This document shows, piece after piece, positions 1 to 51,020 of a DNA stretch of 64,000 bases. Both the position numbers and the translations under genes were made by a program. Source of the DNA: Verrucomicrobiota bacterium (GTDB lineage Bacteria > Verrucomicrobiota > Verrucomicrobiia > Limisphaerales > SXTU01); NCBI GenBank assembly GCA_039796295.1, contig JBDKJY010000011.1, forward strand, positions 93,157 through 157,156, in the 5' to 3' direction. Positions within the stretch are counted from its first letter, which is position 1. Every line of letters begins with the position of its first letter. The notes below the pieces were generated by a model. The model worked only from the letters and a program-made list of their open reading frames with translations, was not told the origin of the DNA and did no database searches.

Positions 1-1
1 C

Positions 2-589
2 CATGTCATCGGCCTCGACCAGTCCGCCGAGATGATTGAGCGCGCCCAGCGCAAGCGCAGCACGCTCAACGGCCACACCGACTACGTGCGCTTCCAAGTC
101 GGCGACGCCTGCCGCACCGACCTGGCCACCAACTTCGACCTCGTCACCTGCATGTTCGCCGTCCTCAGCTACCAGACCACGGATGCGGACGCGCTTGCGC
201 TCTTCAAAAACGCCCGCCGCCATCTGGACTCCGGCGGCCTCTTCATCTGCGATTACTGGCACGGCCCCGGCGTCCTCACGCAACGCCCGATCACGCGCAC
301 GAAGACCGCCGAGTTCGCTGGCGACGTCATCTCCCGCACCTCCACCCCCACGCTCGACGAGACCAAGCACACGGTCAGCCTCGACATCGTCACCAGCCAC
401 GCCCACGACGGATTGCGCTTCGACGAGTCCCGCGAGCAACACCGCGTCCGCTACTTCTTCGCCTCAGAAATCACCCGCCTCCTCACCGCCGCTGGCCTGC
501 GTCCGCTGCACTTCTGCGCTTTCCCCAACCTCGATCAACCACCCACTGCTAACGACTGGAACGCCGCCGTCATCGCCCGCGCCAACTAA
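2..589 (+). CDS. Class I SAM-dependent methyltransferase (5' end cut by window edge)
   Basis: Frame is open from base 2 (..VIGLDQSAEMIERAQ..) and continues as ORF-track 32..589. Rossmann MTase-like blocks are present (VIGLD.S..M, FDLVTCMFAVLSY, LDSGGLFI). TAA at 587-589. Confidence 0.7.
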   Translation, partial: HVIGLDQSAEMIERAQRKRSTLNGHTDYVRFQVGDACRTDLATNFDLVTCMFAVLSYQTTDADALALFKNARRHLDSGGLFICDYWHGPGVLTQRPITRTKTAEFAGDVISRTSTPTLDETKHTVSLDIVTSHAHDGLRFDESREQHRVRYFFASEITRLLTAAGLRPLHFCAFPNLDQPPTANDWNAAVIARAN

Positions 590-599
590 GTCCCCTTCT

Positions 600-1544
600 A
601 TGACTCAAAGCCAAACTCACTCCTCGTTTCCCGTCACCCGCCAGGAATTTGCCTGCCTCGCTCAGGGCATCACGATCACCGGCCAGATGTTGCAGGCACA
701 CATCGCCGCCGGCACCGAGGTCGGCGAGCAGAACGCGCGGGTGCGACAAGATTCGCTGCACAATCCGGCAGAGCAGCGTCTGCTTTACCTGCAATACCAG
801 GCCCTCGCCCGGCAGGGGGTGCCGCTGCCATCGTTTGCGGAGGCTGGCTTCCGCGTTTACTCGCAGTCCGATGAGGACGGGTTACTGCTGCTCCTCTTCT
901 CACAGATTGGCTTCACCAATCGCCGTTGTGTGGAAATGGCGTTTGGCACGCCATACGGCGCGAACGTGACCAACCTCATTCTGAACTGGGGCTTCATGGG
1001 CTTGATGGTCGAGTGCAAGGCGGTTGAGGAGTCTCAGCGGTTCTTCGCCACGCATCGCGACACCTGGGTGTATCCGCCGCCGGTGGTGAAATCGTGGATC
1101 ACTCCGGAGAATGTGAACTTCCTCTGCCAGTCGCACGGCTACACCGGCTCGCTCGATTTTTTCTCGCTGGACATGGACAGCACTGACTACTGGGTTTGGG
1201 AGCGGCTCGATGCCATCCAGCCGCGGGTGGTGGTGGTGGAGTTCAACCCAGCGCTCGGGGCCGAGCGCAGCTTGACCATCCCCAACATCGCTGGCAGCCG
1301 CGAGCGGCACACGGCCTACTACGGTGCCTCGCTTACGGCACTGGTGAAGCTGGGCCGACGCAAGGGCTACCGCTACGTCGGTGCCAACCGCTACGGCTAC
1401 AACGCTTTCTTCGTTCGCGAGGATTCGGCTCCGGCCACCCTGCCGGCCGCATCCCTGGAGGATGCCTTCCAGCACCACCGCGCCCAGGAGTTGGTCGCGA
1501 AACAAGGTCCGGAGCTGGCCGCTTTCGAGTGGGTTGAAGTCTGA
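600..1544 (+). CDS. Hypothetical protein, glycan-cluster associated (possible FkbM-like fold)
   Basis: ATG at 600 follows a 10-nt gap after the upstream stop. The 36..599 part of ORF-track 36..1544 is an out-of-frame shadow of the methyltransferase. FRVYSQSDEDGLLLLLF resembles an N-terminal block I associate with FkbM-type proteins. No firm family call. Confidence 0.5.
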   Translation: MTQSQTHSSFPVTRQEFACLAQGITITGQMLQAHIAAGTEVGEQNARVRQDSLHNPAEQRLLYLQYQALARQGVPLPSFAEAGFRVYSQSDEDGLLLLLFSQIGFTNRRCVEMAFGTPYGANVTNLILNWGFMGLMVECKAVEESQRFFATHRDTWVYPPPVVKSWITPENVNFLCQSHGYTGSLDFFSLDMDSTDYWVWERLDAIQPRVVVVEFNPALGAERSLTIPNIAGSRERHTAYYGASLTALVKLGRRKGYRYVGANRYGYNAFFVREDSAPATLPAASLEDAFQHHRAQELVAKQGPELAAFEWVEV

Positions 1545-1557
1545 TCACACCGCCTTT

Positions 1558-4500
1558 ATGAAAATACACATTGTCTGCTACGAAGATGTCCACGGCTGGA
1601 TCCTCGGCAAGTTCGCCTTGAAGCTCCAGGAGCACCTCCGCCCGCTCGGCATCGCCGCCACCATTTCCAAGCAGCCCGACCCGCAAGCGGACATCAACCA
1701 CCACATCATTTACTACGACTACGATGGCCGGAAGACCACCACCGAGACCGTCATGGTCACGCACATTGACACCGACTGGAAACGCGAGCGTCTCCGCCAG
1801 CAGCTCGTCAACGCCGCGATGGGCATCTGCTGCTCGGCCGAAAGCGTGGACGCCCTCGCCGCCGCCGGTCTGCCGCGCGAAAAGCTCTGCTTCGTCAACC
1901 CCGGCCACGACGGCGAGATGCGCGCCCGCCGCACCGTCATCGGCATCACGAGCAAAGTTCAGCCCAGTGGCTGCAAACGCGAAGGCATCCTCCTCGACCT
2001 CGCTCAACGCCTCTCCCCCGATGAATTCCAGTTCCGCATCATGGGCACGGGCTGGGACGAGCACGTGAAGAACTTGCGCCTCGCCGGCTTCACCGTGGAC
2101 CACTGGAAAGCCTTCGACCGCCCGGAGTATCTCAAGCTGATGCCGAGCCTTGACTACTACCTCTACCTCGGCCTCGACGAAGGCTCGATGGGCTACATGG
2201 ACGCGCTCGCCGCTGGCGTGCAAACCATCGTCACCACGCAAGGTTTTCACCTCGACGCGCCCGGCGGCATCACGCACGGCTGGAGCGAACCCGCCGAGCT
2301 GTTCCGCATCTTCGAGAGCATCGCCCGCGAGAAACGCCTGCGTCAGCAAGCCGTCGCCAACTGGACTTGGCCCGAATACGCCAAGCGCCACTTGGCCCTC
2401 TGGCACTACCTGCTCGCCCGGCAGTCCGGCCAGTTGTTGAGCGCGTCCCTCCGCGCGCCGCTGGCCAAGATGGCCGTGCTCGTGGACAAAGGTGCCTTCG
2501 CCGAAGTGAAGTTGACCGAGGAAAGCAAGCCGGCGAAGCCATCCGATGACTCGCCGCAACGGCGTGAACTTCCCCCTGAAGTCATCCGCTCACTTCGCGC
2601 CCAGCACTCGCACTTGATGGCCGCCAATCCGGCCGCCGCTGCGACTTTCCGCAAGCAGTTCGCCAAGCAACCGCTCGACGCGGTCGTCGCGGACTTCGAC
2701 GGCGACCTAAAGTTCCGTTGCAGCCTGCACCACCACATCGGCAGCCAGATTTTCTGGCATGGCGGCTACTCGCAGGCACAGCTTCGCCTCCTGAGCCGGC
2801 TGCTCACGAGGCCGGACATGGTTTATCTCGACGCCGGCGCGAATGTTGGCGAGCAGACGGTCTTCGCCGCCAAGCGTCTTCCGCGCGGCCAGGTTTTTGC
2901 CTTCGAGCCGACCACGGAAGTTTTCCAGGTCCTCTCCGAAAACGTCCGGGCGAACGGCTTCACGCACGTCCGCGCCGAGAAGCTCGGTCTCGGCGAGCAG
3001 TCCGGCGAGCTGCCCATTTATTCGTCGCATGCCGAGGTTGCCAGCGATGGGACGGTGAACGAGGGCGTTCCGACGCTGTTCAGCTCCACCGACCGCGGCA
3101 CGGTCATCGAGCGGGTGAGGATTGTGCGCCTGGATGACTTCCTTGCGCCGCTCAACCTTCCGCGTCTGGACGTGATGAAGGTGGATGTCGAGGGCGCCGA
3201 GATGATTGTGCTCAAGGGCGCGGTGGAGACCATCAAGCGCCATCGGCCCGTGTTCATCGTCGAAGTCCACGAGGGCACCAGCCAGAGCGCCGGCCACTCC
3301 GTGCGCGAGCTGCTCCAGTTCATTCAGCGCCTGGGCTATCGCATCGAGGGCCTGCAACCTGACGGCGGAACGCGCCCCTTCACGGACAATCAACTGGCTG
3401 AGATTCGGGATGTGGTGTGCTTTCCGCTGCCGGTCGCGGCTGCGGCACTGGAGACGGATCAAACTCCCGCCATCGAAGCCGAAATCACCGCCGCGCTCGC
3501 CGTCGACCCGAACGACCGCGAAGCGCTCACCGCGCTGCTCTCCCTGCGGCTCGACCAATCACGCTGGGCCGAAGCCGCGAAGGCCGCGTTCCAACTGCTC
3601 CAGCAAACGCCGAACGAAGCGCCCATTCTCCAAGCTCTCGCCCACTGCCTTGACCAAACCGGCGAGCACGAAACCGCCGCCGCCGTGCGCGGGCGCATTG
3701 GAGCGCGGACGCCCACGTCCGCAGCACCTCCGAGTGATGAGTCGGCCAGCCACAACCCAACGCGGCCTGCGTCCCTCCCTCTCCCAGCGGGAGAGGGCCG
3801 GGGTGAGGGAGAACGCGTCCCTTCTTGCACCGTCGCCGCTCCGTCCACCGCAACGACTGCGGACGTAGGCGTCCGCGCTCCACGAGTCCTCCTCCTCGCC
3901 GATGTGCCCAACTGGATTTTCCACCGCCACTGCCAAGAGCTCACCGCCCGTCTCGGCGACGAGTTCACCTTCACCACGAAGTTCGCTGGCGAGCCGTTTA
4001 ACGAAGCCGACTACGACCTCATCTACCCGCTTGAGTTCAACCTCGTGAACCCCGCGTGCATCACCGACCCGCGCAAATACCTCACCGGCATCCGCTCCCA
4101 CTGCACCTGGCAGCGCCTCGGCTTTGAGCAAAGCATCGCCACGCTCAAGACCAACTTCGCCCACGTCCACGCCGTCTCCACGCGGTTGCAACGCATCTTC
4201 GCCCCGCACGTCCCGAGCCTCACGCTCCTCAGCCACGGCGTGGACACGAACTTCTTCACGCCCCGCGCCACGGCCACTTCACCCGCTGGCAAACTTCGCC
4301 TCGGCTGGGCCGGCAACCGCCTCTCGCCGAACAAAGGTTTCGCCGAACTCATCGCGCCGCTCGGCCAGCTTCCCGGCGTCGAACTCGTCTTCTGCGGCTA
4401 CGCCGACCGCAACCTAAACCGCGAACAGATGCGCGAGTTCTACGCCTCCGTGGACGCCGTGGTCTGCGCCTCCGACTTCGAGGGCAACAATAACTCGCTC

Positions 4501-7500
4501 CTCGAAGCCGCCGCGATGGCCCGCGCCCTCGTCACCACCGACACCGGCACGGTGCCCGAGTATCTCACCCACGGCGCGAGCGCTCTTATCGTCGAGCGCA
4601 CGCTGCCTGCTCTCACCGCCGCCGTGCTCACGTTGCGCGACCAACCGGAGCTGCGCGCAAAACTTGGCACCGCCGCTCGCGCCTCAGTCGTGGAGAAATT
4701 CTCTTGGGCGAAACTCGCCGAAGCCCACCGCGCATGGTTCCGCACCGCCCTTGCCAGCGCTGCGCCCGGCCAGCCTGACTACAACGAGATCGAGCAGCTC
4801 GCGCGGCAGGCCTTGGTCGAAAACCCGGATGGCGTGGAAGCCCTTTCGCTGCTGGCCCAAGCGCTCTTGCACCATCGCAACTTCAACGAAGCGGCGCGCG
4901 TATGCCTCCGCTTGCTCGAACTCCAACCAACCCACATCAACGCCCTCGCGATGCTGGCCAAGTGCCTATTCCAGGCCAACGAGCTCGCCGCCGCCCGCTC
5001 CACGCTGGAGCAAATCCTCGAACTCGAACCGAACAACGCAATGGCCCGGGAGAACCTCCAAGCCCTCGCGCAGCTCCAAGCCAATGGAGCGCGGACGCCC
5101 ACGTCCGCAGCCCCTGCCGACACAACGAAACCTGCTGCGGACGTAGGCGCCCGCGCTTCGCTCCCGCCGCACCTCCAGCCCGAACTCGACGCCGTCAGCG
5201 CCGCCTACGCAGCCGGCGACCTCCCTGCCGCACACGCCATCCTCCACCGAGCCTTCAAGGCGAATCCCGACTGCGACGCCCTCCGTGAGCTGGCCGCCGA
5301 GTCCACCGGCCTTGTCCGCGCTGCCTGCCCCGTGCCCGACTTCGGCGACGCCGTGAAGCCCGCGCGCTTGAACATCGCGCTGATGACCTTCAACGCGCTG
5401 GCTTACACCAAGCTCTGCCTCGCCAGCCTCCGGCAGCACAGCACCGAGGCTTACAACGTCTTCATCGTGGACAACGGCTCCACGGACGGCACGCGCGAGT
5501 GGCTCGCCGAGCAAACGGATGAAAACCTCTTCGTCGAGTTCAGCCCCGCGAACCTCGGCGTGCCCGGTGGCCGCAACCGCCTGCTCCAGCTCATCCAGCC
5601 GCACCTGCGCACCTCGGACTTCGTCATCTTCATGGACAACGACATCGAGGTGATGCCCGGTTGGGTGGAGCATTTCTCGAACTTCTTCGTCGCCAACCCG
5701 CACGTCGGAATCGCCACGGCAGTCGGCCACTACTTCAACGTGCGCGGCGACCTGCGTGAACTCGGCGCGGTGCCCGTCGGTGCGCCCACGCCAGTGGATG
5801 TGGCGTGCGGCGGTTTCGTGTGCTGGGTCCGCGCGGCTACGGCGGCGGCCGTGGGCGAGTATGATGAAAAGCTCGGCCTGTTCTGGCACGAAGATGACGA
5901 CTACACCGTCCGTGCGCTCGCGTCCGGCTGGGAAGTTTTCATCGTCCCCGGTGCTCCCGTGCTCCATCACGAGCACAAGTCCGGCGAAGCCAAACCCGGC
6001 ATCAAGGTCGGCGGCTCCCCGGCGAACCAGCGCTACCTCGCGAACAAGTGGCGCGCCCTCGGCCTGCTGGACGCGAACGGCAAACCGAAGCGGCCCAAGT
6101 CCCAAGTAGGTCAGCGCGTCTCGCCTGACCTTCAAACTAAAGTTCCCCCTCAAGCGGAGTCAGGAAGTCAGACGGACAGGCAGGATGCGCTGTCCTACTT
6201 CAAGGCGAAGCGCCCTCGCGTCACCCTCCCCATCCGCTGGGCCGCGCCGTTCTTCAATCCCACCGGTTACGCCAGCGAGGCCATCAACTTCGTCCTCCCG
6301 CTCTCGCACCAGCTCAACCTCGGCCTCTTCCACGACACCAACATCACCTCCGAGCAATTCACCGCCGAGCTGCCCGCTGCGGACCGCGACCGTTTGCTAG
6401 CTCTCCGCGACAAGTTCTTCCTCATGCGCGGCGGCGTGCTCGTCTCGCACAATCCGGCCTTCGCCTTCAAGCGCACGCCCGACGCGCTCTATCACGTCGG
6501 CCGCTCCATGTATGAGACCGACCGCATCCCCGCCGACTGGGTGACGTGCTGCAACGGCATGGACGAAGTCTGGGTGCCGAGCCAGTTCAACGTGGAGACG
6601 TTCGCCAACAGCGGCGTGCTGCGCGAGAAGCTCGTGGTCATCCCCGGCGCGGTGGATGAAAACCTCTTCGACCCCGCCAAGCACACGCCGCTGCCGCTGC
6701 CCAACGCGGCGAAGTTCAACTTTGTTTCCGTCTTCGAGTGGTCCGGGCGCAAGGCCTGGGACGTGTTGCTTGCCGCGTATCTGCGCGAGTTCTCCGCTGC
6801 CGATGACGTGTGCCTGCACCTCCGCACTTACCTCTTCGGCCACCCCGACGCCGACCCGCGCGACACGTTGGAACCGCTCATCCGCGACTTCGCGGCGAGC
6901 CTCGGGCTGGGCAACAAGGCGCTCCCGCGCATCCAGTTGCTCACTGAGCAAATCGCGACCGCCGACCTCCCGCGTCTCTACCTCGCGGCGGATTGCATCG
7001 TCGTGCCGAGTCGCGGTGAAGGCTGGGGTCGTCCGATGCATGAGGCGATGGCGATGGGCCGCCCGGTCATCGCGACCGGCTGGAGCGCGAACACGGAGTT
7101 CATGAACGCGGACAACTCCTACTTACTCGACTACGAGCTGGTGGAGGTGACCGGCGTGGAGCCGTATCTGAAACACTACCTCGGCCACCGCTGGGCGCAG
7201 CCCTCCGAGAAGCACCTCCGCGAGCTAATGCGCCGCGTGAAGGAGAACCCTTCCGAAGCCGCCGCGAAAGGCGCAAAGGCCCGCGCACACGTGACGAAAC
7301 ACTTCTCCCGCGCCGCCGTGGAGGAGAAGGTCATGCAGCGGCTGGAAGCCATTGAGCGGAAGTTCACCAAGGCGAGCTGTGAGCCGGTGTCGGCGAAAGT
7401 GCGTGTCCTTGAGCACGCGGCTGCTCTCCCTCAGCCAAGCGCGTCCTCCATCGCACTGGCCTGGTCCGGCTCCTTCCTCGACTTCGGTAGCCTCTCGCAC

Positions 7501-10500
7501 GTCAACCGCGAGCTGACGAGCGCCTTGGAAAAGCTCCCCGGCGTCCGGCTCACGCGCCTTGGCCAAAGCACGCTGAACGCTCCCAACGCGCTCGCCGGCC
7601 TCGCGCGCACGCTCAAGTCCACTGCGCCCACCGGCACCCAGGTCACCGTCCGGCATGCGTGGCCGCCGGATTGGCAACGGCCCGCGACTGGCAAGCTTGT
7701 CGTGATGCAACCGTGGGAGTTCGGCGCTTTGCCGCTCGATTGGGCGAAGCAAGCCGGCAGCGTGGACGAGTTCTGGGCTTACTCGAACTACGTCCGTCGC
7801 CTCTACCTTGCGGCCGGCGTCGCGCCCGAGAAGGTGAAAGTCATCCCGCTGGGCATTGACCCGGCGACGTTCCGACCTGACGCCAAGCCACTGCCGCTCG
7901 CGACGCGCAAGGCGTTCAAGTTCCTCTTCGTCGGCGGCACCATCTACCGCAAAGGCCCGGACGTGCTGCTGCGCGCTTACCTCGACACCTTCACCGCTGC
8001 CGACGACGTGTGTCTCGTCATCAAAGACTTCGGTGGCAACAGCGTTTACCAAGGCCAGACGCTCGGCACGCAAATCAAGGCCGCCCAAGCCCAGCCGAAC
8101 GCGCCGGAGATCCTCCACCTCACCGACGACCTGCCGCCCGAGTCGCTCCCGAGCCTCTACACCGCGTGCGATTGCCTCGTGCATCCGTATCGCGGCGAGG
8201 GCTTCGGCCTGCCTGTGCTCGAAGCAATGGCCTGCGCGCTCCCGGTTATCTGCACCGGCGGCGGCTCCACGGATGATTTCGCGACCGATGAGTTCGCGTA
8301 TCGCCTGCCCGCCGTGCGGAAGCCGATCGGCAACCGGGTCGGCAACATCGAGTTGGTCAGCGGCGGCTGGCTGTTTGAACCCGATGCGTCCGCGCTCGCT
8401 GCTCGTCTCCGGCACGTTCTTGGCAACCGCGACGAAGCCCGCGCCAAGGGCCGCGCGGCGAGCGAGTTCGCCCGCACGCAGTTCACCTGGCAACGCAGCG
8501 CGGAGGCGGTGGCCGCTTGTCTCACCGTGGAGGCCGTCCCAGCGGCAGCGGTGCCGGCCAAGCCGGAGCCGAGCCACGATCGGTCAGCGTTGCTGGTTCC
8601 CCTCGCCCCGCTCGGCCCGTCCGGTGACAGCGCGAGTGCGATGCAGAAGCCGAAGCTGAACTTCAAGCTCCCCACGGTCGCGCTCCTCGGCGACTTGTGC
8701 GCGGCGCGGGCCGCCTTGCAACGGAAGCAGTTCGTCCCGGCCTGGAGCGCCGTGCTGGACAGCTTGAAGGCGCGCCCTTTCAACCCGGACGCGTGGCTGC
8801 TGCTCGCCGAGATTGCCCGCGAAGCCGGTGACCTCCCGATGGCCACGCGGTGCGCCGAGCGCTGCCGCACGCTCGCCCCGCAGTGGCGCAGCGCGAAGAA
8901 GTTCCAGAAGACGCTGCCGACGCACGGACGCGACCCGAAGATTGCCTGGCCCGCGTTGCCCGCCGCGAGCGCCGCACCGCGCCTGTCGGTCTTCATCATC
9001 GCGAAGAACGAGGAGCGGTTCCTCGGCCAGTGCCTCGCTTCGATCAAAGGCTTGGCCGACCAACTCGTCGTCCTGGACACCGGCTCGACCGACCGCACCG
9101 TCGCTATCGCCCAGGAGCACGGCGCGGAAGTTCACCACGCTGTGTGGGAAGATGATTTCAGTGCCGCCCGGAATGCCGCGCTCGCGCACTGCACGGGCGA
9201 TTGGGTGATGTTCCTCGATGCCGATGAGGAGCTGCCGCCCGCCGAGCACGCGAAGCTGCGCGCCGACCTGCAAGCGCCCGGCGTGCTGGCCTTGCGCGTG
9301 CGGTTGCAGAACGCCGGGCTGGAGGACGACGGCTGCTGCCACGTTCCGCGCGTCTGGCGGAACGCGCCCGGCCTGTTCTTCTACGGGCGCGTCCACGAGC
9401 AGGTGTTCCCGAGCGTCCTCGTGAAGTGCGAAGCCTGGCATCTGGAAACGCGCCTCGGCACGACGACCTTGCGCCACCACGGCTACGATCCCGAGGTGGT
9501 GAAGGACCGGAACAAGATCGCGCGCAACCTCGCCTTGCTCCGCCGCGCCGTGCAGGAGCTGCCGGGCGAACTGAACTTGACCATGAACCTCGGTCTCGAG
9601 CTGGTGCGCTCCGGGCAGTTGCAGGAAGGGTTGGAACACTACCGGTTGGCCTTCAGTCAGCTCGCGGAACTGCCGAAGAAAGACATTGTGCCCGAGCTGC
9701 GCGAGTCACTCCTCACTCAATTCGTCTGCCACCTGCACACGGCGAAGCAAGTCGCCGAGCTGTTGCGCGTGCTGGAGTCGCGGACGGCGCGCGAGGGCGG
9801 GCTGACTGCCTCGATGCACTTCATGGCGGCGCTCGCCTGCCTCGAACTCAAGCGCTTCACCGACGGCGCGGAGCACGCCTGCCTCTGCCTCGCCAAGCGC
9901 CACCAACCCGTCCTCTCCCCCATCAACCGCGATATCCTGAAGGCCGGCCCGCACCATGTGCTGGCGCTGTGTCAGTGGGGCGCGCAGCAGCACGAGGAGG
10001 TGGAGCAAGCCTTCTTGAAAGCACTGGCCGAAGACGCTGGAGCGCGGGCGGCGCGTTTGGATTTCGCGCGTTGGTTGGCCGAACGCGGGCGCAAGGTGGA
10101 CGCGCTGCACTTGCTGCACAAGCTGGTGCCCGGCAGTGAGACCGAGCCGCGCGTGTGGCAGCTCGGCGCACAGATTGCGTTGAGTGAACCGGAGTTCATC
10201 GAGTTCGCCGGGGATTGGACCAGCGAGGCGGTGAGTCATCACCCGGAGAACACGGGGCTCGTGTCCTTGCGGGCCGAGGCGTTGTTGCTCGCGGGCGATG
10301 CGGAAGGAGCCATCGCGGTGATGGCACCGCTCCAGGCGGATTCGCCCACGCTCCACGCCGCGCGGCTGCTGGCCACGCTCGCCAGCGACGGCGGGTTGCC
10401 CGCCGGAGTCGCCCGGAACGAAGGGGCGGTGAGCGGTGAATTCCTGCGGTGGTATCGGCGGTTGGTGGAGTTCCGCACGAACAGCTTGCTCCTGAAGGTC

Positions 10501-10596
10501 AATGCGCGGCTGGCGGAGCTGGATAGCTTGCTGCCCACGGCGGCGCGGATATTGACCGCAGCGGTGGAGGAAGCCACGGCGGCGGAAACTCATTGA
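1558..10596 (+). CDS. Giant multidomain glycosyltransferase/methyltransferase/TPR protein (3,012 codons)
   Basis: Uninterrupted frame (ORF-track 1381..10596). First ATG at 1558 (MKIHIVCYEDVHGW), 13 nt after the upstream stop. Approximate in-frame modules:
- GT-B-like 1558-2450
- FkbM MTase 2700-3370 (YLDAGANVGE, VFAFEP, MKVDVEGAE)
- TPR 3470-3700
- GT4 3885-4745 (FEGNNNSLLEAAAMARALVTTD)
- TPR 4780-5085
- GT2 5365-6070 (FIVDNGSTDGT, DNDIEV)
- GT4 6210-7365 (PSRGEGWGRPMHEAMAMGRPVIAT)
- GT4 7445-8525 (PYRGEGFGLPVLEAMACALPVICT)
- TPR 8650-8910
- GT2 8975-9560 (SVFIIAKNEE, VLDTGSTDRT, LDADEE)
- TPR-like tail to 10593. Confidence 0.75.
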   Translation: MKIHIVCYEDVHGWILGKFALKLQEHLRPLGIAATISKQPDPQADINHHIIYYDYDGRKTTTETVMVTHIDTDWKRERLRQQLVNAAMGICCSAESVDALAAAGLPREKLCFVNPGHDGEMRARRTVIGITSKVQPSGCKREGILLDLAQRLSPDEFQFRIMGTGWDEHVKNLRLAGFTVDHWKAFDRPEYLKLMPSLDYYLYLGLDEGSMGYMDALAAGVQTIVTTQGFHLDAPGGITHGWSEPAELFRIFESIAREKRLRQQAVANWTWPEYAKRHLALWHYLLARQSGQLLSASLRAPLAKMAVLVDKGAFAEVKLTEESKPAKPSDDSPQRRELPPEVIRSLRAQHSHLMAANPAAAATFRKQFAKQPLDAVVADFDGDLKFRCSLHHHIGSQIFWHGGYSQAQLRLLSRLLTRPDMVYLDAGANVGEQTVFAAKRLPRGQVFAFEPTTEVFQVLSENVRANGFTHVRAEKLGLGEQSGELPIYSSHAEVASDGTVNEGVPTLFSSTDRGTVIERVRIVRLDDFLAPLNLPRLDVMKVDVEGAEMIVLKGAVETIKRHRPVFIVEVHEGTSQSAGHSVRELLQFIQRLGYRIEGLQPDGGTRPFTDNQLAEIRDVVCFPLPVAAAALETDQTPAIEAEITAALAVDPNDREALTALLSLRLDQSRWAEAAKAAFQLLQQTPNEAPILQALAHCLDQTGEHETAAAVRGRIGARTPTSAAPPSDESASHNPTRPASLPLPAGEGRGEGERVPSCTVAAPSTATTADVGVRAPRVLLLADVPNWIFHRHCQELTARLGDEFTFTTKFAGEPFNEADYDLIYPLEFNLVNPACITDPRKYLTGIRSHCTWQRLGFEQSIATLKTNFAHVHAVSTRLQRIFAPHVPSLTLLSHGVDTNFFTPRATATSPAGKLRLGWAGNRLSPNKGFAELIAPLGQLPGVELVFCGYADRNLNREQMREFYASVDAVVCASDFEGNNNSLLEAAAMARALVTTDTGTVPEYLTHGASALIVERTLPALTAAVLTLRDQPELRAKLGTAARASVVEKFSWAKLAEAHRAWFRTALASAAPGQPDYNEIEQLARQALVENPDGVEALSLLAQALLHHRNFNEAARVCLRLLELQPTHINALAMLAKCLFQANELAAARSTLEQILELEPNNAMARENLQALAQLQANGARTPTSAAPADTTKPAADVGARASLPPHLQPELDAVSAAYAAGDLPAAHAILHRAFKANPDCDALRELAAESTGLVRAACPVPDFGDAVKPARLNIALMTFNALAYTKLCLASLRQHSTEAYNVFIVDNGSTDGTREWLAEQTDENLFVEFSPANLGVPGGRNRLLQLIQPHLRTSDFVIFMDNDIEVMPGWVEHFSNFFVANPHVGIATAVGHYFNVRGDLRELGAVPVGAPTPVDVACGGFVCWVRAATAAAVGEYDEKLGLFWHEDDDYTVRALASGWEVFIVPGAPVLHHEHKSGEAKPGIKVGGSPANQRYLANKWRALGLLDANGKPKRPKSQVGQRVSPDLQTKVPPQAESGSQTDRQDALSYFKAKRPRVTLPIRWAAPFFNPTGYASEAINFVLPLSHQLNLGLFHDTNITSEQFTAELPAADRDRLLALRDKFFLMRGGVLVSHNPAFAFKRTPDALYHVGRSMYETDRIPADWVTCCNGMDEVWVPSQFNVETFANSGVLREKLVVIPGAVDENLFDPAKHTPLPLPNAAKFNFVSVFEWSGRKAWDVLLAAYLREFSAADDVCLHLRTYLFGHPDADPRDTLEPLIRDFAASLGLGNKALPRIQLLTEQIATADLPRLYLAADCIVVPSRGEGWGRPMHEAMAMGRPVIATGWSANTEFMNADNSYLLDYELVEVTGVEPYLKHYLGHRWAQPSEKHLRELMRRVKENPSEAAAKGAKARAHVTKHFSRAAVEEKVMQRLEAIERKFTKASCEPVSAKVRVLEHAAALPQPSASSIALAWSGSFLDFGSLSHVNRELTSALEKLPGVRLTRLGQSTLNAPNALAGLARTLKSTAPTGTQVTVRHAWPPDWQRPATGKLVVMQPWEFGALPLDWAKQAGSVDEFWAYSNYVRRLYLAAGVAPEKVKVIPLGIDPATFRPDAKPLPLATRKAFKFLFVGGTIYRKGPDVLLRAYLDTFTAADDVCLVIKDFGGNSVYQGQTLGTQIKAAQAQPNAPEILHLTDDLPPESLPSLYTACDCLVHPYRGEGFGLPVLEAMACALPVICTGGGSTDDFATDEFAYRLPAVRKPIGNRVGNIELVSGGWLFEPDASALAARLRHVLGNRDEARAKGRAASEFARTQFTWQRSAEAVAACLTVEAVPAAAVPAKPEPSHDRSALLVPLAPLGPSGDSASAMQKPKLNFKLPTVALLGDLCAARAALQRKQFVPAWSAVLDSLKARPFNPDAWLLLAEIAREAGDLPMATRCAERCRTLAPQWRSAKKFQKTLPTHGRDPKIAWPALPAASAAPRLSVFIIAKNEERFLGQCLASIKGLADQLVVLDTGSTDRTVAIAQEHGAEVHHAVWEDDFSAARNAALAHCTGDWVMFLDADEELPPAEHAKLRADLQAPGVLALRVRLQNAGLEDDGCCHVPRVWRNAPGLFFYGRVHEQVFPSVLVKCEAWHLETRLGTTTLRHHGYDPEVVKDRNKIARNLALLRRAVQELPGELNLTMNLGLELVRSGQLQEGLEHYRLAFSQLAELPKKDIVPELRESLLTQFVCHLHTAKQVAELLRVLESRTAREGGLTASMHFMAALACLELKRFTDGAEHACLCLAKRHQPVLSPINRDILKAGPHHVLALCQWGAQQHEEVEQAFLKALAEDAGARAARLDFARWLAERGRKVDALHLLHKLVPGSETEPRVWQLGAQIALSEPEFIEFAGDWTSEAVSHHPENTGLVSLRAEALLLAGDAEGAIAVMAPLQADSPTLHAARLLATLASDGGLPAGVARNEGAVSGEFLRWYRRLVEFRTNSLLLKVNARLAELDSLLPTAARILTAAVEEATAAETH
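3700..3881. repeat. MITE-like palindromic element with 25-bp terminal inverted repeats, in frame inside the giant ORF
   Basis: GGAGCGCGGACGCCCACGTCCGCAG (3700-3724) versus reverse complement of 3857-3881, 24/25 match. Interior carries a 9-bp-stem hairpin CCCTCTCCC-AGC-GGGAGAGGG (3777-3797). A 20-nt core (3789-3808) is identical, in inverted orientation, to 42609-42628. Confidence 0.8.
5086..5159. repeat. Short copy of the same TIR hairpin element, in frame inside the giant ORF
   Basis: Left arm 5086-5110 is identical to 3700-3724. Right arm 5135-5159 pairs 22/25. 24-nt loop. Encodes GARTPTSAAP...ADVGARA, mirroring the peptide at the first copy. Confidence 0.8.
6104..6200. repeat. Candidate third palindrome-bounded element in a giant-ORF linker
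   Basis: AAGTAGGTCAGCGC (6104-6117) versus reverse complement of GCGCTGTCCTACTT (6187-6200), 13/14. Inner stems AGGTCAG/CTGACCT and GGACAG/CTGTCC. Locally AT-richer. Sits between the GT2 and GT4 modules. Confidence 0.45.
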
Positions 10597-10612: not shown

Positions 10613-13177
10613 ATGAACGGCCCTACAAAGGAGCAAAACCGGCGCGTGCTGGTGGTGGACGATGATCCGCTGGTCCACGTCATCATGCGGCGCGTGCTCA
10701 CGCAGCCGCCGCCCGTCTCCAAGAAGGCCGAGGATAACTTCCCGCCGTTTGTCGTCACCGACGCGATGTGTGGCGAGGAGGCGGAGCAGCTCACGCGGAA
10801 GGCGGAGGATGCGGGCCTGCCCTTCGCCTTGGCCTTCGTGGACATGTATATGCCGGGGATGGACGGCCAGCAGACCTTGAGCCGGCTCTGGCACATCTCG
10901 CCGGAGCTGCAGGCGGTGGTGTGCACGGGCGCGGCGGACCAGGCGCTGACGCAACTGCTCGCGCGGTTCGGCAACACGGACCAGCTCATCATTCTCAAAA
11001 AGCCGTTCGAGATCCTCGAAGTGCTCCAGCTCGCCAATGCGATGACCTCGAAGTGGCGGAACTTTGTCGCGCTGCAAGGGCACCTGGCGGGGTTGGAGAA
11101 CTGCGTCTTCGAGCGCACGGAGGACGCGCGGCGGGCGCTCGAAAAGGTGAAGTGGGAACTGGAGGAGCGGCGCAAATCCGAGACGCAGTTGCGGCGCAGT
11201 GAGGAGTTGCTCCGGCTCATCACGGACAACGCCGCCGACCTCATTGCCGTGGTGGATGCGCACGGCCAGCGCCTCTACAACAGCCCTTCCTATCGCACTG
11301 TCCTCGGCTACTCGCAGGCGGATCTCAACAGCTCAGACTCGCTCGCCCAGGTGCATCCTGAGGACCGCGAGCGCGTGACGGCGGCGGCCCGCGAGGCCAT
11401 CGAGTCGGGCGGCTCCAACCGGGTGGAGTATCGGATGCGGCATAAGGACGGGACGTGGCGCATCCTGGAGTCCACCGGCTCGGCCATCCGCAACGAACGC
11501 AGCGAGGTGGAAAAGCTCGTGCTCGTGGCGCGCGATGTCACGGAGCGCAAGCAGGTCGAAGCCATCGCGCGGGAGAACGAGGAGCGGCTCGGCTCGCTCA
11601 TCGCGAACATTCCCGGTGCGGTCTATCGCTGCACGCCGTTGCCGGAGCGGCGGATGGAGTTCGTGAGCGAGTTGATTTGGGAGCTGTCCGGTTTTCCCAG
11701 CACGGACTTTCTGGAGGATCGCACCCAGACGTTTGCTTCCATCACGCACCCGGAGGACTTGCCGCAGGTGCTGGCGGCGCTTCAGGAAGGGGTGAGCCGC
11801 CGCCAGCCTTACGTGGCTGATTACCGCGTGGTGCGCTTCGACGGCACGTTGCGTTGGGTGCATGAGAAAGGGCAGGCGGTCTTCGACCCGGCGGGCAACG
11901 TGCGCTGGCTGGACGGCGTCATCTTCGACATCACTGAGCGCAAGCAGCAGGAGGAGGAGATGCGCCGGATGCACACGGAGACGGAGAAGCTCTTCGCCTC
12001 CATTTCTGCCGTGTTGATCGGCGTGGATGTGGCGGGGCGCGTCGCGCGGTGGAACGCGGCGGCGGAGCAGACCTTCAGCTTCACAGCGGAGGAAGTGCTG
12101 GGGCGGCCGTTTCACGCGCTGCCGCTCGGGTGGGATTGGGAGAAGCTGTTGACCGTCGTGAGCGAGGCGGTGCACACGGACCGGCATCTGGAGCTGGATA
12201 ACTTCCAGTGCCAGCCCGCCACGGGGCGGCACATTTCCCTGAACTTGAGCGTCACGCCGAGCAAGCCGGACCTGGAGAACCGGCTGAAATACATCCTCCT
12301 CGCCGTGGACACGACGCAGCGGCGCGAGTTGGAGACGCAGCTCCGGCAGGCGCAGAAGCTGGAGTCCATCGGCCAGCTTGCCGCCGGCATCGCGCACGAA
12401 ATCAACACGCCGACGCAATACATCGGCGACAACTTGCGCTTCCTCCAAGACGCCTTCCGCGACCTCGGGAAGCTGCTGAACGCGCACGGGGCGTTGCTCG
12501 CTGCCACGAAGAGCGGCGGGGTGACGGCGGAGGTGATCGCGGACGCCGAGGCGGCGGCGGAGACGGCGGACGTGGAGGATTTGCAGGGCGAAATTCCACG
12601 GGCGATTGGCGAATCCCTGTCCGGTGTGGAGCGCGTCGCGACGATTGTGCGGGCGATGAAGGACTTCTCGCATCCCGGCTCGGAGGACAAGACGCCGGTG
12701 GATTTGAACCGTGCCATCGAGAGCACCATCACCGTGGCGCGCAATGAGTGGAAGTATCTGGCCGACTTGGAGACGGACTTTGACACAACTTTGCCGCCGG
12801 TGCCGTGTCTGCCCGGAGAGTTTAACCAGGCGGTGCTCAACCTCATCGTCAACGCCGCGCACGCCATTGCGGCCAAGGTCGGGGACGGCGCGGGCGGCAA
12901 GGGCGTCATCACCGTGCGGACGCGCAAGGACGGCGACTGGGCAGACGTGCGCATCCGCGACTCCGGCACGGGCATTCCGGAGGCGGCGCGGGCGCGCATC
13001 TTCGAGCCATTCTTCACGACGAAGGAAGTGGGCAAGGGCACGGGGCAGGGCTTGGCCATCGCGCGGTCGGTGGTGGTGGACAAGCATGGCGGGACCATCA
13101 CGTTTGAGACCGAGACCGGGCAGGGCACCACGTTCATCGTGCGGCTGCCGCTGACGGTGGGGAAGGGGAACAACTAG
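10613..13177 (+). CDS. Cytoplasmic sensor histidine kinase with N-terminal receiver (REC, coiled coil, 3x PAS, HisKA, HATPase_c)
   Basis: REC: [26 protein letters not shown]. Three PAS blocks, each ending ..D(V/I)TERKQ. H-box [13 protein letters not shown] boxes [25 protein letters not shown]. Confidence 0.85.
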
Positions 13178-13184
13178 GACTCGC

Positions 13185-14399
13185 ATGAAGAAACGGGTGC
13201 TGTTCGTGGATGACGAGACGATGGTGCTGCAAGGCTTGCAGCGCATGTTGCGCCCGATGCGCAACGACTGGGACATGGAGTTTGTCGAGTCGGGGACCGT
13301 GGCGCTGGAGCGGATGGCGGCGGCGCCGGCGGACGTGGTGGTTTCGGATATGCGCATGCCGGGGATGAACGGCGCGCAGCTCCTCTCCGAGGTGATGCGG
13401 CGTTTTCCGAAGACAGTGCGTATCATTCTGTCCGGCCACGCGGACCATGACCTGGTGCTCAAGGCGGTTGGCTCGACGCACCAGTATTTGCACAAGCCCT
13501 GTGAGCCCGAGATCCTCAAGGCGACGGTGCAGCGCGCGGTGGCGTTGGGCGACTCGCTGGACAACGAGCAGGTGAAAGCGCTCGTGTCGCAGATGAGCCG
13601 GCTGCCGAGCTTGCCGACGGTTTACCTGCGGGTGGTGGAGGAGCTGCAATCCGCTGATGCCTCGCTGGCGCGGGTGGGCGAGGTCATTGCGCAGGACGTG
13701 GGCATGAGTGCGCAGGTATTGAAGCTGGTGAACTCGGCATTCTTCGGGTTGCGGCGGCGAGTGGCGAACGCGTCCGACGCCGTGAACTACCTCGGCCTCG
13801 ACACCATCAAGGCGCTGGTGCTCTCGCTGCACACGTTCTCCCAATACGAATGCGCGGACCTGGGTGGCATCTCGATGGTCGCGCTGCGGAACCACAGTTT
13901 GCTGACCGCCGCGTGCGCCCGGCACATTGCGCGGATGGAGGGTGCGGAGGCGAAGATCCTGGATGAGGCGTTCATCGGCGGGTTGCTCCACGACGCGGGG
14001 AAGCTGGTGCTCGCCGCGAACTTCAGCGGGCCTTACGCGCGCGCGATGAAGCTCACCCGGGATGGGGGCCTGACCTTCACGGCGGCGGAGCGCGGCGTCT
14101 TTGGCTGCACGCACGCGGACGTGGGCGGTTACTTGTTGGGCTTGTGGGGCTTGCCGGTGCCGGTGGTCGAGTGCGTCTCGTATCACCATCACCCGAGCCG
14201 CACGCTGGAGAATGCGTTCAGCCCGCTCACGGCGGTCCATGCGGCGAACGTGCTGGCTTACGAGTTGGACAAGGAGGCGGTCGCAGGCAAACGCGCGGGG
14301 TTCGATCACGACTATCTGCTGCGCGTGGGCAAGGCCGGTCGGGTCGCGGCCTGGCAGGAGGATTGCCGCCTGAACGTGCAGCCGGGAGGTGGCGTGTGA
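13185..14399 (+). CDS. Response regulator, REC + HDOD domain
   Basis: VLFVDDE..VVVSDMRMPGMNG..YLHKPC, then HDOD-like LPSLPTVYLRVVEEL...LKLVNSAFFGL...GGLLHDAGKLVL. Confidence 0.8.
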   Translation: MKKRVLFVDDETMVLQGLQRMLRPMRNDWDMEFVESGTVALERMAAAPADVVVSDMRMPGMNGAQLLSEVMRRFPKTVRIILSGHADHDLVLKAVGSTHQYLHKPCEPEILKATVQRAVALGDSLDNEQVKALVSQMSRLPSLPTVYLRVVEELQSADASLARVGEVIAQDVGMSAQVLKLVNSAFFGLRRRVANASDAVNYLGLDTIKALVLSLHTFSQYECADLGGISMVALRNHSLLTAACARHIARMEGAEAKILDEAFIGGLLHDAGKLVLAANFSGPYARAMKLTRDGGLTFTAAERGVFGCTHADVGGYLLGLWGLPVPVVECVSYHHHPSRTLENAFSPLTAVHAANVLAYELDKEAVAGKRAGFDHDYLLRVGKAGRVAAWQEDCRLNVQPGGGV

Positions 14400-15529
14400 C
14401 GGAGAAGATTCTCTGCGTGGACGACGAGGCCAATGTGCTCGCCGGCTTCCAGCGGAACTTGCGCCGGCGTTTTCAACTGGAGACTGCTCAGGGCGGTGAA
14501 GCGGCGCTGGCGATGCTGGAGCAGAGCGGGCCGTTCGCCGTGGTCGTGTCCGACATGCGGATGCCCAATGTGTCCGGCTTGCAACTGCTGCGGCAGGTGA
14601 AGGCGCGCTGGCCGGAGACTGTGCGCCTGATGCTCACCGGCAACGCCGATCAGCAAACCGCGATGGACGCGGTGAACGAGGGCAGCATCTTCCGCTTCCT
14701 CACCAAGCCGTGTCCCCCGGAGACGCTCGGGGCCGCGCTCACCGCTGCGCTGGAGCAACACCGGCTCATCACCGCCGAGCGCGAGTTGCTGGAGAACACG
14801 CTCAACGGCAGCGTGCGCGCGCTCACGGAAATCCTTTCCCTACTCGCTCCGGAGACGTTTGGGCGCGGTCAGGTGGTGCGCGAACAGATGCGCGCCGTGG
14901 CGGTGACGCTGGGGTTGCCCAATGTCTGGGAGCTGGAGATGGCGGCGATGCTGCACGGCTTGGGCCAGGTCATGCTGCCGACGGAGGTGGCCGGTCGCGC
15001 GCGGCGCGGCGCGGCGCTCTCAGCGGCGGAGGAGACGATGGTGCGGAGCGTGCCGGAGGCGGGTAGCAACTTGCTGGCGCACATTCCACGGCTGCAACAG
15101 GTCGCGCGCATGGTGCTGTTTCAGAACAAGCACTTTGACGGCACCGGCTATCCCATGGACACGCCCGGCGGCGAGGAGATTCCCCCCGGCGCGCGGTTGC
15201 TCAAGGTGCTGCTGGACCTGGGGCAGCTTGAGGTGCGCGGCAGCTCGCGGCGCGAGGCGCTGGCGCAGATGCGCGAGCGGGCCGGGCATTACGACCCGCA
15301 GCTGTTGGATGCCGTCGCCGTCGTGGTCGGCGCGGGCGGGCAGAAGCCCACGACGGGCATTGCCTTCAAGGACTTGAAGCCCGGGCATGTGCTGGTCTCG
15401 GATGTCCTCACCTCGCAGAACTTGCTCATCATCGCCGCTGGCAATCGCGTCTCGCCCAGCCTGCTGGAACGACTGCGCAACTTCGCCGCGTTGTCCGGCG
15501 TGAAGGAACCCATCTATGTCGAAGCCTGA
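14396..15529 (+). CDS. Response regulator, REC + degenerate HD-GYP domain
   Basis: GTG at 14396 overlaps the upstream TGA (GTGTGA). REC: ILCVDDE..VVVSDMRMPNVSG..FLTKPC. Output domain keeps FDGTGYP and EEIPPGARL but has LHGLGQ in place of LHDIGK. Other His/Asp ligands are not visible. Confidence 0.75.
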   Translation: MTEKILCVDDEANVLAGFQRNLRRRFQLETAQGGEAALAMLEQSGPFAVVVSDMRMPNVSGLQLLRQVKARWPETVRLMLTGNADQQTAMDAVNEGSIFRFLTKPCPPETLGAALTAALEQHRLITAERELLENTLNGSVRALTEILSLLAPETFGRGQVVREQMRAVAVTLGLPNVWELEMAAMLHGLGQVMLPTEVAGRARRGAALSAAEETMVRSVPEAGSNLLAHIPRLQQVARMVLFQNKHFDGTGYPMDTPGGEEIPPGARLLKVLLDLGQLEVRGSSRREALAQMRERAGHYDPQLLDAVAVVVGAGGQKPTTGIAFKDLKPGHVLVSDVLTSQNLLIIAAGNRVSPSLLERLRNFAALSGVKEPIYVEA

Positions 15530-16457
15530 GAAGCCGAGTCACCGCGCCCTTTTGCATTATCTGGAACTCGCCGATCCCGCCAAGCGCTGGCCGCGCGATC
15601 GCATGTTGGAAGTATTCGAAGCGGGCGACAGCTTCCCCTCCTTCTCCGCCGCCGTGCTGAAGCTGACGCGACTGGCGAAAGACGAAGCGGTGGGCATGGA
15701 TGAACTGGCCGACCTCATCAGCAAAGAGCCAGGCCTCGCCACCAACTGCATCCGTGCGGCCTCGACCTCGCGGTTTGGCCGGGGCGTGGTCCGCAGCGTG
15801 CGGGGCGCGGCCTTGCGGCTGGGCACGCAGGAGATCTCGCGCGTGGCCTGCTCACTCGGCGTGATGGACCGCTTCAACCACCTCCGGGTGACGGTGGACT
15901 GGCAGCGGTTCTGGCTGCACAGCCTGCTGGTGGCGCGGATCTCGGACCAGATCGCCGCCGCGTTCCGGCAGTCCACAGGGATGGAGTATCTGGCGGGCCT
16001 ACTGCACGACGCGGGCAAGCTGCTCATCGAGCATTACCTGTCCCGCGAATATGAAACCGTGCTGGAGCGGGCTTGGAGTCACAAACGAGGGCACTTCATC
16101 GCCGAGCGCGAAGTGCTGGCCATTGACCACGCGCAGATTGGCGCAGCGCTCTGCCACTGTCTCCAGGTCCATCCTCAAGTGCGCGCCGCCGTGTGGTTTC
16201 ACCACGACCCGACGAACCCGCGCCTGCTCCAGATGGCGGGCGGCGATAAGGGTTTCCTCGCGGCGGTCGTGGGCTTCGCGGACGTGCTCGCGCATAAGGC
16301 GAGTGAAACCCTCGGCCACGAGCGCAGGACGGACACGCCCTACGACGAGCTGCCGGAGTGGCGACAGTTGATCGAGTTCGATCCGATCCACGGTCTGGAA
16401 CTCGACACGGAGAACGACCTGGCGGCGGCGGAAGCGGACTTGAAGGCGTTCACCTAA
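15516..16457 (+). CDS. Stand-alone HDOD domain protein
   Basis: ATG 15516 overlaps the upstream gene by 14 nt. FPSFSAAVLKLTRLAKDE...LISKEPGLATNCIRAAST...GLLHDAGKLLIEHY. Confidence 0.75.
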   Translation: MSKPEKPSHRALLHYLELADPAKRWPRDRMLEVFEAGDSFPSFSAAVLKLTRLAKDEAVGMDELADLISKEPGLATNCIRAASTSRFGRGVVRSVRGAALRLGTQEISRVACSLGVMDRFNHLRVTVDWQRFWLHSLLVARISDQIAAAFRQSTGMEYLAGLLHDAGKLLIEHYLSREYETVLERAWSHKRGHFIAEREVLAIDHAQIGAALCHCLQVHPQVRAAVWFHHDPTNPRLLQMAGGDKGFLAAVVGFADVLAHKASETLGHERRTDTPYDELPEWRQLIEFDPIHGLELDTENDLAAAEADLKAFT

Positions 16458-39550: not shown

Positions 39551-39610
39551 AAATTCAGGCAAGCGTTGACGTGACGGGGGAAGCGGTATTCGGAGGCGAG
39601 CCTGCGCGCA

Positions 39611-39993: not shown

Positions 39994-40028
39994 CGCTGCG
40001 CCGCCAGCAAGACGGGCGAAGCGGCTCG

Positions 40029-40889: not shown

Positions 40890-41010
40890 GCGCCTCGTAT
40901 AGCGGGCGGCGCGGCGGAGGGGAAGGCGGTTTCTATCCGCAACCTCCCGAGGTCTCACGCGAAGGGCGCGAAGGGCGCAACGCCGAATTGATTTCCGGGC
41001 GGGCTAAGGA

Positions 41011-41106
<96 letters not shown>

Positions 41107-51016: not shown

Positions 51017-51020
51017 CCCT

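Follow-up and report, generated by a model that had tools for sequence, protein, structure and literature searches.

Flagellin glycosylation is widespread and, to our knowledge, the known systems use separate small enzymes. Flagellin glycosylation islands, of which the Pseudomonas fgt genes are an example, lie next to flagellin genes and hold several glycosyltransferases (GTs), DegT/FdtB-type aminosugar synthesis genes and methyltransferases including those of the FkbM type, encoded as separate genes or small fusions. Soluble fusions of two or three GT and methyltransferase activities, with terminal methylation, are represented by WbdA/WbdD of Escherichia coli O9a and WsaE of the Geobacillus S-layer glycan, which use lipid-linked acceptors and ABC-transporter export. 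FkbM methyltransferases are present in Geobacillus flagellin glycosylation islands (PMC5109656), and the type B flagellin of Clostridioides difficile bears a methylated multi-sugar glycan that ends in an amino-dideoxyhexose and is made by fliC-adjacent genes (PMC5207245). GmaR of Listeria monocytogenes, a flagellin beta-O-N-acetylglucosamine (GlcNAc) transferase and MogR anti-repressor, has a GT domain followed by a tetratricopeptide repeat (TPR) domain proposed to recognize flagellin (PMC9638930). Here we describe, in a 64,000-nucleotide (nt) stretch of a Verrucomicrobiota bacterium contig (JBDKJY010000011.1, positions 93,157–157,156; hereafter the window), a single open reading frame (ORF) at 1558–10596 of the forward strand (3,012 codons plus a stop codon). 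Its product, here called the giant protein, combines five GT modules recognized by sequence, a sixth predicted from its fold, an FkbM-type methyltransferase and four TPR blocks, and is probably a soluble cytoplasmic flagellin O-glycan synthase.

The locus resembles flagellin glycosylation islands in its gene content and in the flagellin-adjacent position seen in relatives, but six GTs and a methyltransferase are here placed in one polypeptide. WbdA, WbdD and WsaE are much smaller and, unlike the giant, have neither a GmaR-like protein-targeting unit nor a flagellar context. Flagellin glycosylation, GmaR-type enzymes and multi-domain GTs are already known; what is new is the extent of the fusion (six transferases and a methyltransferase on a putative flagellin-targeting unit), a head-middle-tail organization with apparently swappable cassettes, and the existence of a large environmental family. 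No description of giant or multi-domain flagellin GTs in Verrucomicrobiota was found in the searchable literature, subscription journals being outside its coverage.

The frame is single and unbroken from 1381 to 10596 in the ORF listing of the window, which confirms the 3,012-codon frame at 1558–10596 reported in the initial annotation of this DNA. The ATG at 1558 lies 13 nt past the stop codon of the upstream gene and, since the N-terminus MKVHIVCYEDV that it specifies is that of all relatives, the protein is taken to start there. An identical protein is also recorded in NCBI (RL514_1627, from a metagenome-assembled genome (MAG), Verrucomicrobiota bacterium) and in JGI, and two independently assembled Logan contigs show 100% identity to window positions 1–3803 and 1–3655. 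More than 20 relatives of 1,900–4,000 amino acids (aa) from NCBI, ENA, JGI and Logan samples (referred to below by locus, L, or protein, P, numbers) keep the frame across the same junctions, and the signature motifs DxD, EX7E and FkbM LDxGANxG are kept in every module across relatives. Given these many independent assemblies and the identical records and contigs, the fusion is real. The source sequence is itself a MAG and the repeat elements found in linkers (see below) might confuse assembly, but an artefact in which missed frameshifts or stops have joined ordinary genes, or a decaying pseudogene, is highly improbable in view of the identical archive records, the full-frame relatives and the motif conservation, and the assembly error against which the initial annotation had advised a check can be set aside.

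The full-length protein and ten overlapping segments of it were scanned with Pfam, and matches above the curated cut-offs were kept. GT4-type domains were located at aa ~927–1055, ~1661–1918 and 2029–2317 and GT2 domains at aa 1275–1473 and 2477–2575, whilst TPR matches were strong at aa 1074–1175 and 2680–2900 and weak at ~641–720 and ~2395–2445. All modules lie on the forward strand. The protein opens with N1 (aa 1–315; 1558–2502), the most conserved module, which is predicted by AlphaFold/Foldseek to be a compact GT-B glycosyltransferase. It is followed by an S-adenosylmethionine (SAM)-dependent FkbM-type methyltransferase domain (aa 425–596; 2830–3345) matched by PF05050 (E 6e-26; 92 bits, cut-off 22.7) and TIGR01444 (E 1e-30; 106.9 bits, cut-off 37.7). 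TPR block a (aa ~641–720; 3478–3717; weak TPR_19/17/14 matches, E 7e-5 to 2e-3) leads to the GT-B module GT4a (aa 776–1065; 3883–4752; Glyco_trans_1_4, Glycos_transf_1 and Glyco_trans_1_2, E 5e-13 to 5e-10; EX7E conserved) and to TPR block b (aa 1074–1175; 4777–5082; TPR_19, E 5e-15, with TPR_14, TPR_17, TPR_2 and ANAPC3). Next come the GT-A module GT2a (aa 1275–1473; 5380–5976; Glycos_transf_2, E 2.5e-18; DNGSTDGT and DND conserved) and two full GT-B modules, GT4b (aa 1551–1936; 6208–7365; Glyco_trans_1_4, E 4e-13, and Glycos_transf_1; EX7E conserved) and GT4c (aa 1963–2323; 7444–8526; Glycos_transf_1, E 8e-19, Glyco_transf_4 and GT4-conflict; EX7E invariant). A C-terminal TPR-GT2-TPR unit, containing a second GT2 module (GT2b), completes the protein. 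An above-threshold GT4-type match together with EX7E was found in three modules (GT4a, GT4b and GT4c), and an above-threshold Glycos_transf_2 match together with a conserved DxD in two (DND in GT2a, DAD in GT2b). Five of the six GT modules initially annotated were thereby recovered by Pfam, three as GT4 and two as GT2, the sixth (N1) being upheld by its predicted fold and not by sequence; the FkbM domain and the four TPR blocks were found within a few tens of bases of the positions first given. Within the giant, GT4b and GT4c are 35% identical and TPR blocks a and b 32% identical. As these were the only paralogous pairs, internal duplication as the source of all modules was rejected.

No transmembrane segment was found in the giant, as had been noted initially: the top 19-aa Kyte-Doolittle window scored 1.64 and lies inside a GT4 core strand-helix, and apart from such Rossmann-fold core elements the protein has no 19-residue stretch with the hydrophobicity of a membrane helix. 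Nor was any carrier or thiolation-type domain found in Pfam or NCBIfam scans of the protein. A nonribosomal peptide synthetase (NRPS)-like assembly line was rejected for want of carrier domains; the description 'assembly-line-like' holds for the modular fusion, the only likeness seen to NRPS or polyketide synthase megasynthases, in which intermediates are covalently tethered to carrier domains and module order is colinear with the product.

The C-terminal unit consists of TPR block c (aa ~2365–2450; 8650–8907; weak Pfam TPR), the GmaR/SunS-type GT-A module GT2b (aa 2471–2680; 8968–9597; Glycos_transf_2, E 5.6e-23; DTGSTD and DADE invariant) and the helical/TPR block d (aa 2681–3012; 9598–10593; TPR_19, E 8e-10). 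When GT2b was searched alone, the best PDB sequence match was the GT domain of GmaR (22ao_A, E 1.7e-24), with SunS-type peptide S-glycosyltransferases next. The unit also exists as a standalone protein of ~650 aa that is common in Verrucomicrobiota (at least 619 matches with 45–52% identity over ~94% of the length) and in which TPR block c is conserved. The profile of this standalone family matched the GmaR GT domain across the whole 200-aa domain (E 2.6e-44) and SunS at E 6.6e-26. Profile positions 286–506 matched residues 26–240 of the 7X9R chain (E 1.1e-13 with the profile, E 0.008 with a single sequence), and positions 35–101, corresponding to TPR block c, matched TPR proteins; OGT and SPINDLY were present among the TPR matches. 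The 7X9R structure comprises GmaR 141–637, that is the TPR, linker and anti-repressor domains (PMC9638930), and past its TPR domain no profile match was obtained to the anti-repressor domain, the part that binds MogR and serves as a thermosensor. Since this Listeria-specific add-on is unmatched, the tail of the giant can be regarded, from sequence, as a homologue of GmaR in its enzyme part only.

In GmaR (22ao, 7X9R) the GT2-then-TPR arrangement is homologous to aa 2471–~2900 of the giant. Shared features are the DxD motif, a cytoplasmic location, association with flagellar genes (for the giant, through its relatives and the Logan contig L001) and short flagellins (~270–290 aa). GmaR differs in being a 637-aa single transferase that adds one GlcNAc and carries a C-terminal MogR-binding domain (PMC9638930), whereas in the giant a further TPR block precedes the corresponding region, and the whole unit lies at the C-terminal end of a 3,012-aa protein that contains five other transferases and a methyltransferase. 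FlmG of Caulobacter crescentus is comparable by domain logic, being a soluble, cytoplasmic protein in which a flagellin-binding TPR region is combined with a GT that acts before export, but its TPR is N-terminal, its catalytic domain is of the GT-B type and it is a 596-aa single transferase that transfers pseudaminic acid (PMC7591256). SunS/ThuS-type enzymes (7msn, 7msp, 7msk), in which the GT2 and the following helical region match aa 2471–2700 of the giant, likewise have a polypeptide substrate; they differ in modifying Cys of small bacteriocin precursors, in being encoded in bacteriocin clusters and in being single transferases. The NCBIfam model TIGR04195 matched this region of the giant at E 8e-18, far under its cut-off. 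From these comparisons GT2b is proposed as the flagellin-directed transferase.

To place the giant in a genomic context, gene calls supplied with the loci were used, greedy ORF calling being unreliable at high GC (spurious antisense ORFs). Flagellar genes were present at 15 of 15 assessable loci, i.e. those with enough flank, of relatives carrying the C-terminal module. In L003/L009, L060 and L062 the order is flgK-flgL-(HDOD, cheD)-fliW-csrA-flagellin, MT24/GT, (sugar genes), giant, where MT24/GT denotes a ~615–660-aa protein with Methyltransf_24 and Glyco_trans_1_2 domains (L003 8044–9972; L004 5668–7515; L001 3–1130). The shorter contigs L005 and L007 carry part of the fliW-csrA-flagellin-MT24/GT-giant order and both end inside the giant, only the end of the flagellin gene being retained in L007. 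A second arrangement, with the giant between fliD and fliS, was found in L004 and L010. The MT24/GT gene directly follows flagellin or fliD, and is also present in a Fibrobacteria locus and in one Bacteroidota locus. The flagellins encoded beside giants are 267–274 aa long and their residues 131–200 are 24–36% Ser+Thr (29–36% in the closest relatives). Public MAG records assign L006, L007 and L009 to 'uncultured Klebsiella sp.' or 'uncultured Akkermansia sp.'; these labels are probably wrong, the contigs being Limisphaerales/Pedosphaera-like (N1 90–92% identity, same synteny).

More divergent giants behave similarly. P0022 (3,991 aa; L063 10001–21976; many GT2 and TPR blocks), P0021 (3,481 aa; L064 10001–20446; with a pyruvyl-transferase domain, PF04230) and P0023 (2,673 aa) share the tail only, plus GT4c in one case, and their genes lie directly after fliW-csrA, with or without flagellin. 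L063 also encodes a 933-aa protein in which FkbM and Methyltransf_24 domains are accompanied by a faint match to a sulfotransferase. A 677-aa standalone member of the tail family is encoded directly after fliW-csrA and a flagellin-fragment gene, and a 1,027-aa member is found in the same operon type after two intervening methyltransferase and GT genes. In L066 (3044–13084), again after fliW-csrA, a split version of the giant is encoded by three genes: an 886-aa protein with TPR and methyltransferases, a 1,408-aa protein with several GT2/GT4 domains and the 1,027-aa protein, which has the order GT4-TPR-GT2-TPR. The initial annotation had suggested a comparison of split and fused orthologues and held that such activities are normally encoded by separate genes; both forms were found, and the statement holds only in part for the lineage of the giant, which includes the split form of L066 but has many fused ones. 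Tail-family genes likewise occur among flagellar genes in the metagenome loci L069 and L070. A metagenome scan with a TPR-GT2-TPR profile returned mostly distant GT2-only matches, the close family accounting for 5 of 80 loci, so it contributed two more assessable loci and is not a large census.

These data are consistent with flagellin as the acceptor, and a cytoplasmic protein glycosyltransferase with another or a broader target (FlgL, FlgK, FliD, pilins or, as with OGT, many proteins) is rather unlikely. Such a target would be in keeping with the ability of TPR-GT enzymes to take many substrates, with the OGT and SPINDLY matches, with L064 and L065, where no flagellin gene is directly adjacent and only FlgL, FliW and CsrA are encoded, and with a pilin-like N_methyl gene near the giant in L065. 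It is countered by the closest characterised homologue, which acts on flagellin, by the usual status of flagellin as the glycosylated flagellar protein, and by the seven loci in which the glycosylation genes are directly preceded by a flagellin gene (L003/L009, L005, L007, L060, L062, L063 and the P0081 locus, where the gene call is a 95-aa fragment).

The window is cut 1.5 kb upstream of the giant, and its upstream context was extended with the Logan contig L001, which is 100% identical over 3.8 kb and adds 4.56 kb. The gene order in L001 is the end of MT24/GT, a small ORF, a sugar 3-C-methyltransferase (closest to TylC3, E 6e-99), a cupin protein, a DegT protein (closest to perosamine synthetase, E 4e-89), a 254-aa methyltransferase, a 314-aa protein and the giant. 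The cupin protein gave weak PDB matches only, to oxalate decarboxylase, and its assignment as a sugar isomerase is a guess. The 254-aa class I SAM methyltransferase (Pfam Methyltransf_25/11/12), whose 3' part lies at 2–589 of the window on the forward strand and which is complete in L001 (4384–5148), has the aminosugar N-methyltransferases TylM1, DesVI and CalS10 as closest solved relatives (E ~1e-16), and its gene is upstream of the giant or of an N1 gene in nearly all relatives. The 314-aa protein (600–1544, forward strand) gave no Pfam match and nothing significant in a PDB sequence search. It belongs to an unnamed widespread family with 742 homologues in many phyla, all annotated 'hypothetical', and PF05050 (FkbM) was weakly matched by 8 of 23 sampled members. 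Its AlphaFold model (predicted local distance difference test score, pLDDT, 88.1) gave top Foldseek matches that all have the SAM-dependent methyltransferase fold and nearly all are methyltransferases (E ~1e-4), suggesting that it is probably a divergent FkbM-like methyltransferase and providing a fold-level function for an unnamed family of more than 700 members. The 314-aa gene is present at the giant locus in the L001, L002 sub-lineage only and is absent from L060 and L062. The earlier proposal that the two genes upstream of the giant belong to the same system is supported by these similarities.

The N1 head gave no Pfam match and no match in a PDB sequence search. Its AlphaFold model, built from eight homologues (mean pLDDT 73.6), matched only GT-B/GT4 enzymes in Foldseek, namely MshA, SenB, HepE, PimA, BshA and WaaG (E down to 5e-9), and it is at the level of this predicted fold only that N1 is supported as the sixth transferase. 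It does not show the sequence features of the GT4 modules, and its motif DEGxMGxxDA is invariant across relatives. N1 keeps 80–92% identity even where the remaining modules of a relative stand at ~50%. A standalone N1 gene of ~350 aa was found in Bacteroidota, Geobacteraceae, Bdellovibrionales, Nitrospiraceae, Spirochaetales and others (loci L011–L058), with 45–58% identity across phyla. A DegT aminotransferase gene is nearly always ~0.8–1.9 kb upstream, and where gene calls were available the space between the two is taken up by a ~255-aa methyltransferase gene. Because N1 stands alone in many phyla, including non-flagellated Bacteroidota, and almost always has a DegT gene upstream, it looks like a transferase for a DegT-made aminosugar and not like a flagellin-specific part. 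DegT, methyltransferase and N1 together have the appearance of a widely transferred cassette for making and attaching an aminosugar, in which the transferase family is unnamed.

From homology and context we infer the following acceptor, chain-starting module, sugars and order of steps. The giant would O-glycosylate flagellin before export, building a multi-sugar methylated glycan. Its GmaR-like tail would recognize flagellin through the TPRs and place the first sugar on Ser/Thr of the short Ser/Thr-rich central region, after which N1, GT4a, GT2a, GT4b and GT4c would extend the chain and the FkbM domain, with separately encoded methyltransferases, would methylate it. N1 would most likely add an N-methylated, perhaps 3-C-methylated, 4-amino-6-deoxyhexose, made by the products of the adjacent C-methyltransferase, cupin, DegT and N-methyltransferase genes. 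Fusion and the interspersed TPR blocks may keep the active sites on one scaffold beside the bound substrate. The initial annotation had suggested a cytoplasmic, possibly protein-directed, multi-step glycosylation/methylation machine in place of a classical exopolysaccharide (EPS) locus, a suggestion supported by the lack of membrane segments in the protein and of exporters among the ORFs scanned, the homology to GmaR and the flagellar operons of relatives.

An alternative is that the giant is a synthase of a lipid-linked or secreted, O-antigen- or EPS-like polysaccharide and that its flagellar neighbours are incidental. It finds some support in the DegT, methyltransferase and N1 cassette of non-flagellated Bacteroidota and other phyla, and in the Fibrobacteria MAG giant P0018 (3,420 aa; L061 10001–20263), which has the N1 head and GT4 modules without the GmaR-like tail; no flagellar genes were found within 10 kb of it, UDP-glucose dehydrogenase and epimerase genes adjoin, and its middle modules may serve a non-flagellar glycan. 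Multi-domain proteins combining GTs with methyltransferase terminators are also known in O-antigen systems (WbdA/WbdD), and sub-threshold NCBIfam similarity was seen to EPS and PEP-CTERM GT4 families. All of the EPS matches are, however, far under their cut-offs, and no Pfam match to Wzx, Wzy, Wzm/Wzt or a polyprenyl-phosphate priming transferase was found in any locus for which Pfam-annotated gene calls were obtained; in L004 two ABC_membrane/ABC_tran genes are present ~4 kb away, beyond thiG and sufE. In the window, where the initial annotation had seen no exporter, none of these exporter or priming families was found among the ORFs scanned (coverage of ORFs at 16–36 kb and of some at 52–64 kb being incomplete). 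The C-terminal unit is moreover homologous to a protein glycosyltransferase in both its GT and TPR domains, and the place of the gene within the fliW-csrA-flagellin operon is conserved, in two distinct arrangements. The absence of exporter and priming families from the Pfam-annotated gene calls of these loci and the conserved flagellin-operon position disfavour a polysaccharide synthase, which we consider improbable.

Several points nevertheless weigh against flagellin O-glycan synthesis by the giant. The support for it consists of sequence, model and gene context. The window carries no flagellar gene, and as it is cut just upstream of the giant, the target proposed for this genome comes from homology and the context of relatives, the link to flagellin being made by their synteny and by the 4.6-kb extension, which ends inside MT24/GT. 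The chain could be started not by the tail but by MT24/GT, whose gene neighbours that for flagellin. Of the 34 loci of 10 kb or more that represent distant, GT2-only relatives, just 8 showed flagellar genes. The N1 model is of moderate confidence and its Foldseek TM-scores are low (~0.35), perhaps because its two lobes are opened at a different angle. Finally, N1 and its DegT/methyltransferase partners occur in non-flagellated Bacteroidota and in the Fibrobacteria giant without flagellar neighbours, so most modules are not flagellin-specific in themselves. Flagellin O-glycan synthesis nonetheless remains the probable function. If it is correct, a whole multi-step glycan pathway is joined to a flagellin-recognition unit in a soluble protein of ~330 kDa, and a likely function is provided for a very large TPR/GT2 protein family of environmental Verrucomicrobiota. 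The split, short and reshuffled versions (650–4,000 aa) within one lineage would form a comparative series for targeting and step order in protein O-glycosylation, and the giant might be used as a scaffold when defined glycans are to be engineered onto a protein.

Module-by-module comparison of the relatives revealed a conserved head (N1), a conserved tail (TPRc-GT2b-TPRd) and a variable middle. The methyltransferase slot is occupied by FkbM, by a Methyltransf_23/12 type, by DUF268 or by nothing, and GT2a is missing or replaced in P0011–P0016. In the giant gene a 22-nt palindromic repeat, GCGCGGACGCC(C/T)ACGTCCGCAG, forms two inverted pairs, both in frame and exactly at inter-module linkers (copies at 3703–3724, 3857–3878, 5089–5110 and 5135–5156). 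The first pair, in the linker between TPR block a and GT4a (3703–3878), encodes GARTPTSAAP...ADVGVRAP and contains a nested second palindrome, CCCTCTCCC-AGCG-GGAGAGGG, at ~3778–3798; the second pair lies at the junction of TPR block b and GT2a (5089–5156). The 64 kb contain four copies, each of them within the giant gene, whereas chance alone predicts 0.18 copies, and a genome-wide repetitive extragenic palindromic (REP) element was rejected on the basis of their location. In relatives the repeat was found at the N1 junction, at the TPRb/GT2a junction and in intergenic DNA after the MT24/GT gene; its positions outside the window are L001 1191–1212, L062 4787–4808, 6055–6076 and 10961–13401, and L008 2343–4069. 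It is present in the P0001–P0006 clade and absent from the more distant relatives P0007–P0010, whose linkers differ. The repeat may be a tolerated small mobile element, an intergenic relic of gene fusion or a cassette-exchange site. A combinatorial family of glycan megasynthases, in which a conserved head and tail enclose GT and methyltransferase cassettes that close relatives gain, lose and exchange, and in which the locus-restricted repeats, translated as disordered linkers, mark or even mediate the fusion and recombination junctions, is a tentative and as yet doubtful possibility. Were it true, the giant would be an evolvable single-chain system with which the flagellar surface glycan could be diversified, for instance as a defence against phages, predators or grazers, and flagellin would be held by the TPR blocks as the six active sites modify it one after another.

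Downstream of the giant, a signalling block on the forward strand (10613–16457) starts 17 nt after its stop codon and encodes a receiver-PAS hybrid histidine kinase, response regulators with HDOD and HD (HD_5) domains, and an HDOD protein. L003 (19061–24909) and L062 (18901–24749) have the same genes in synteny and L060 (18106–22639) the first three only. The block may form a regulatory unit for motility or cyclic nucleotides that is transcribed together with the flagellin glycosylation genes. None of the downstream window genes that were scanned looks glycan-related. An NADH:quinone oxidoreductase/Mrp-antiporter membrane subunit (Proton_antipo_M) is encoded on the reverse strand at 22263–23726, and the ORFs that continue in this direction as far as 36101 seem to be the remainder of a nuo-type operon. 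Genes typical of the Planctomycetes-Verrucomicrobia-Chlamydiae group (PSCyt1/PSCyt2/PSD1, DUF1501, and DUF7133 with cytochrome c and F5/8 domains) occupy window positions 36911–53504; these are unrelated to the giant and fit a Verrucomicrobiota origin of the contig.

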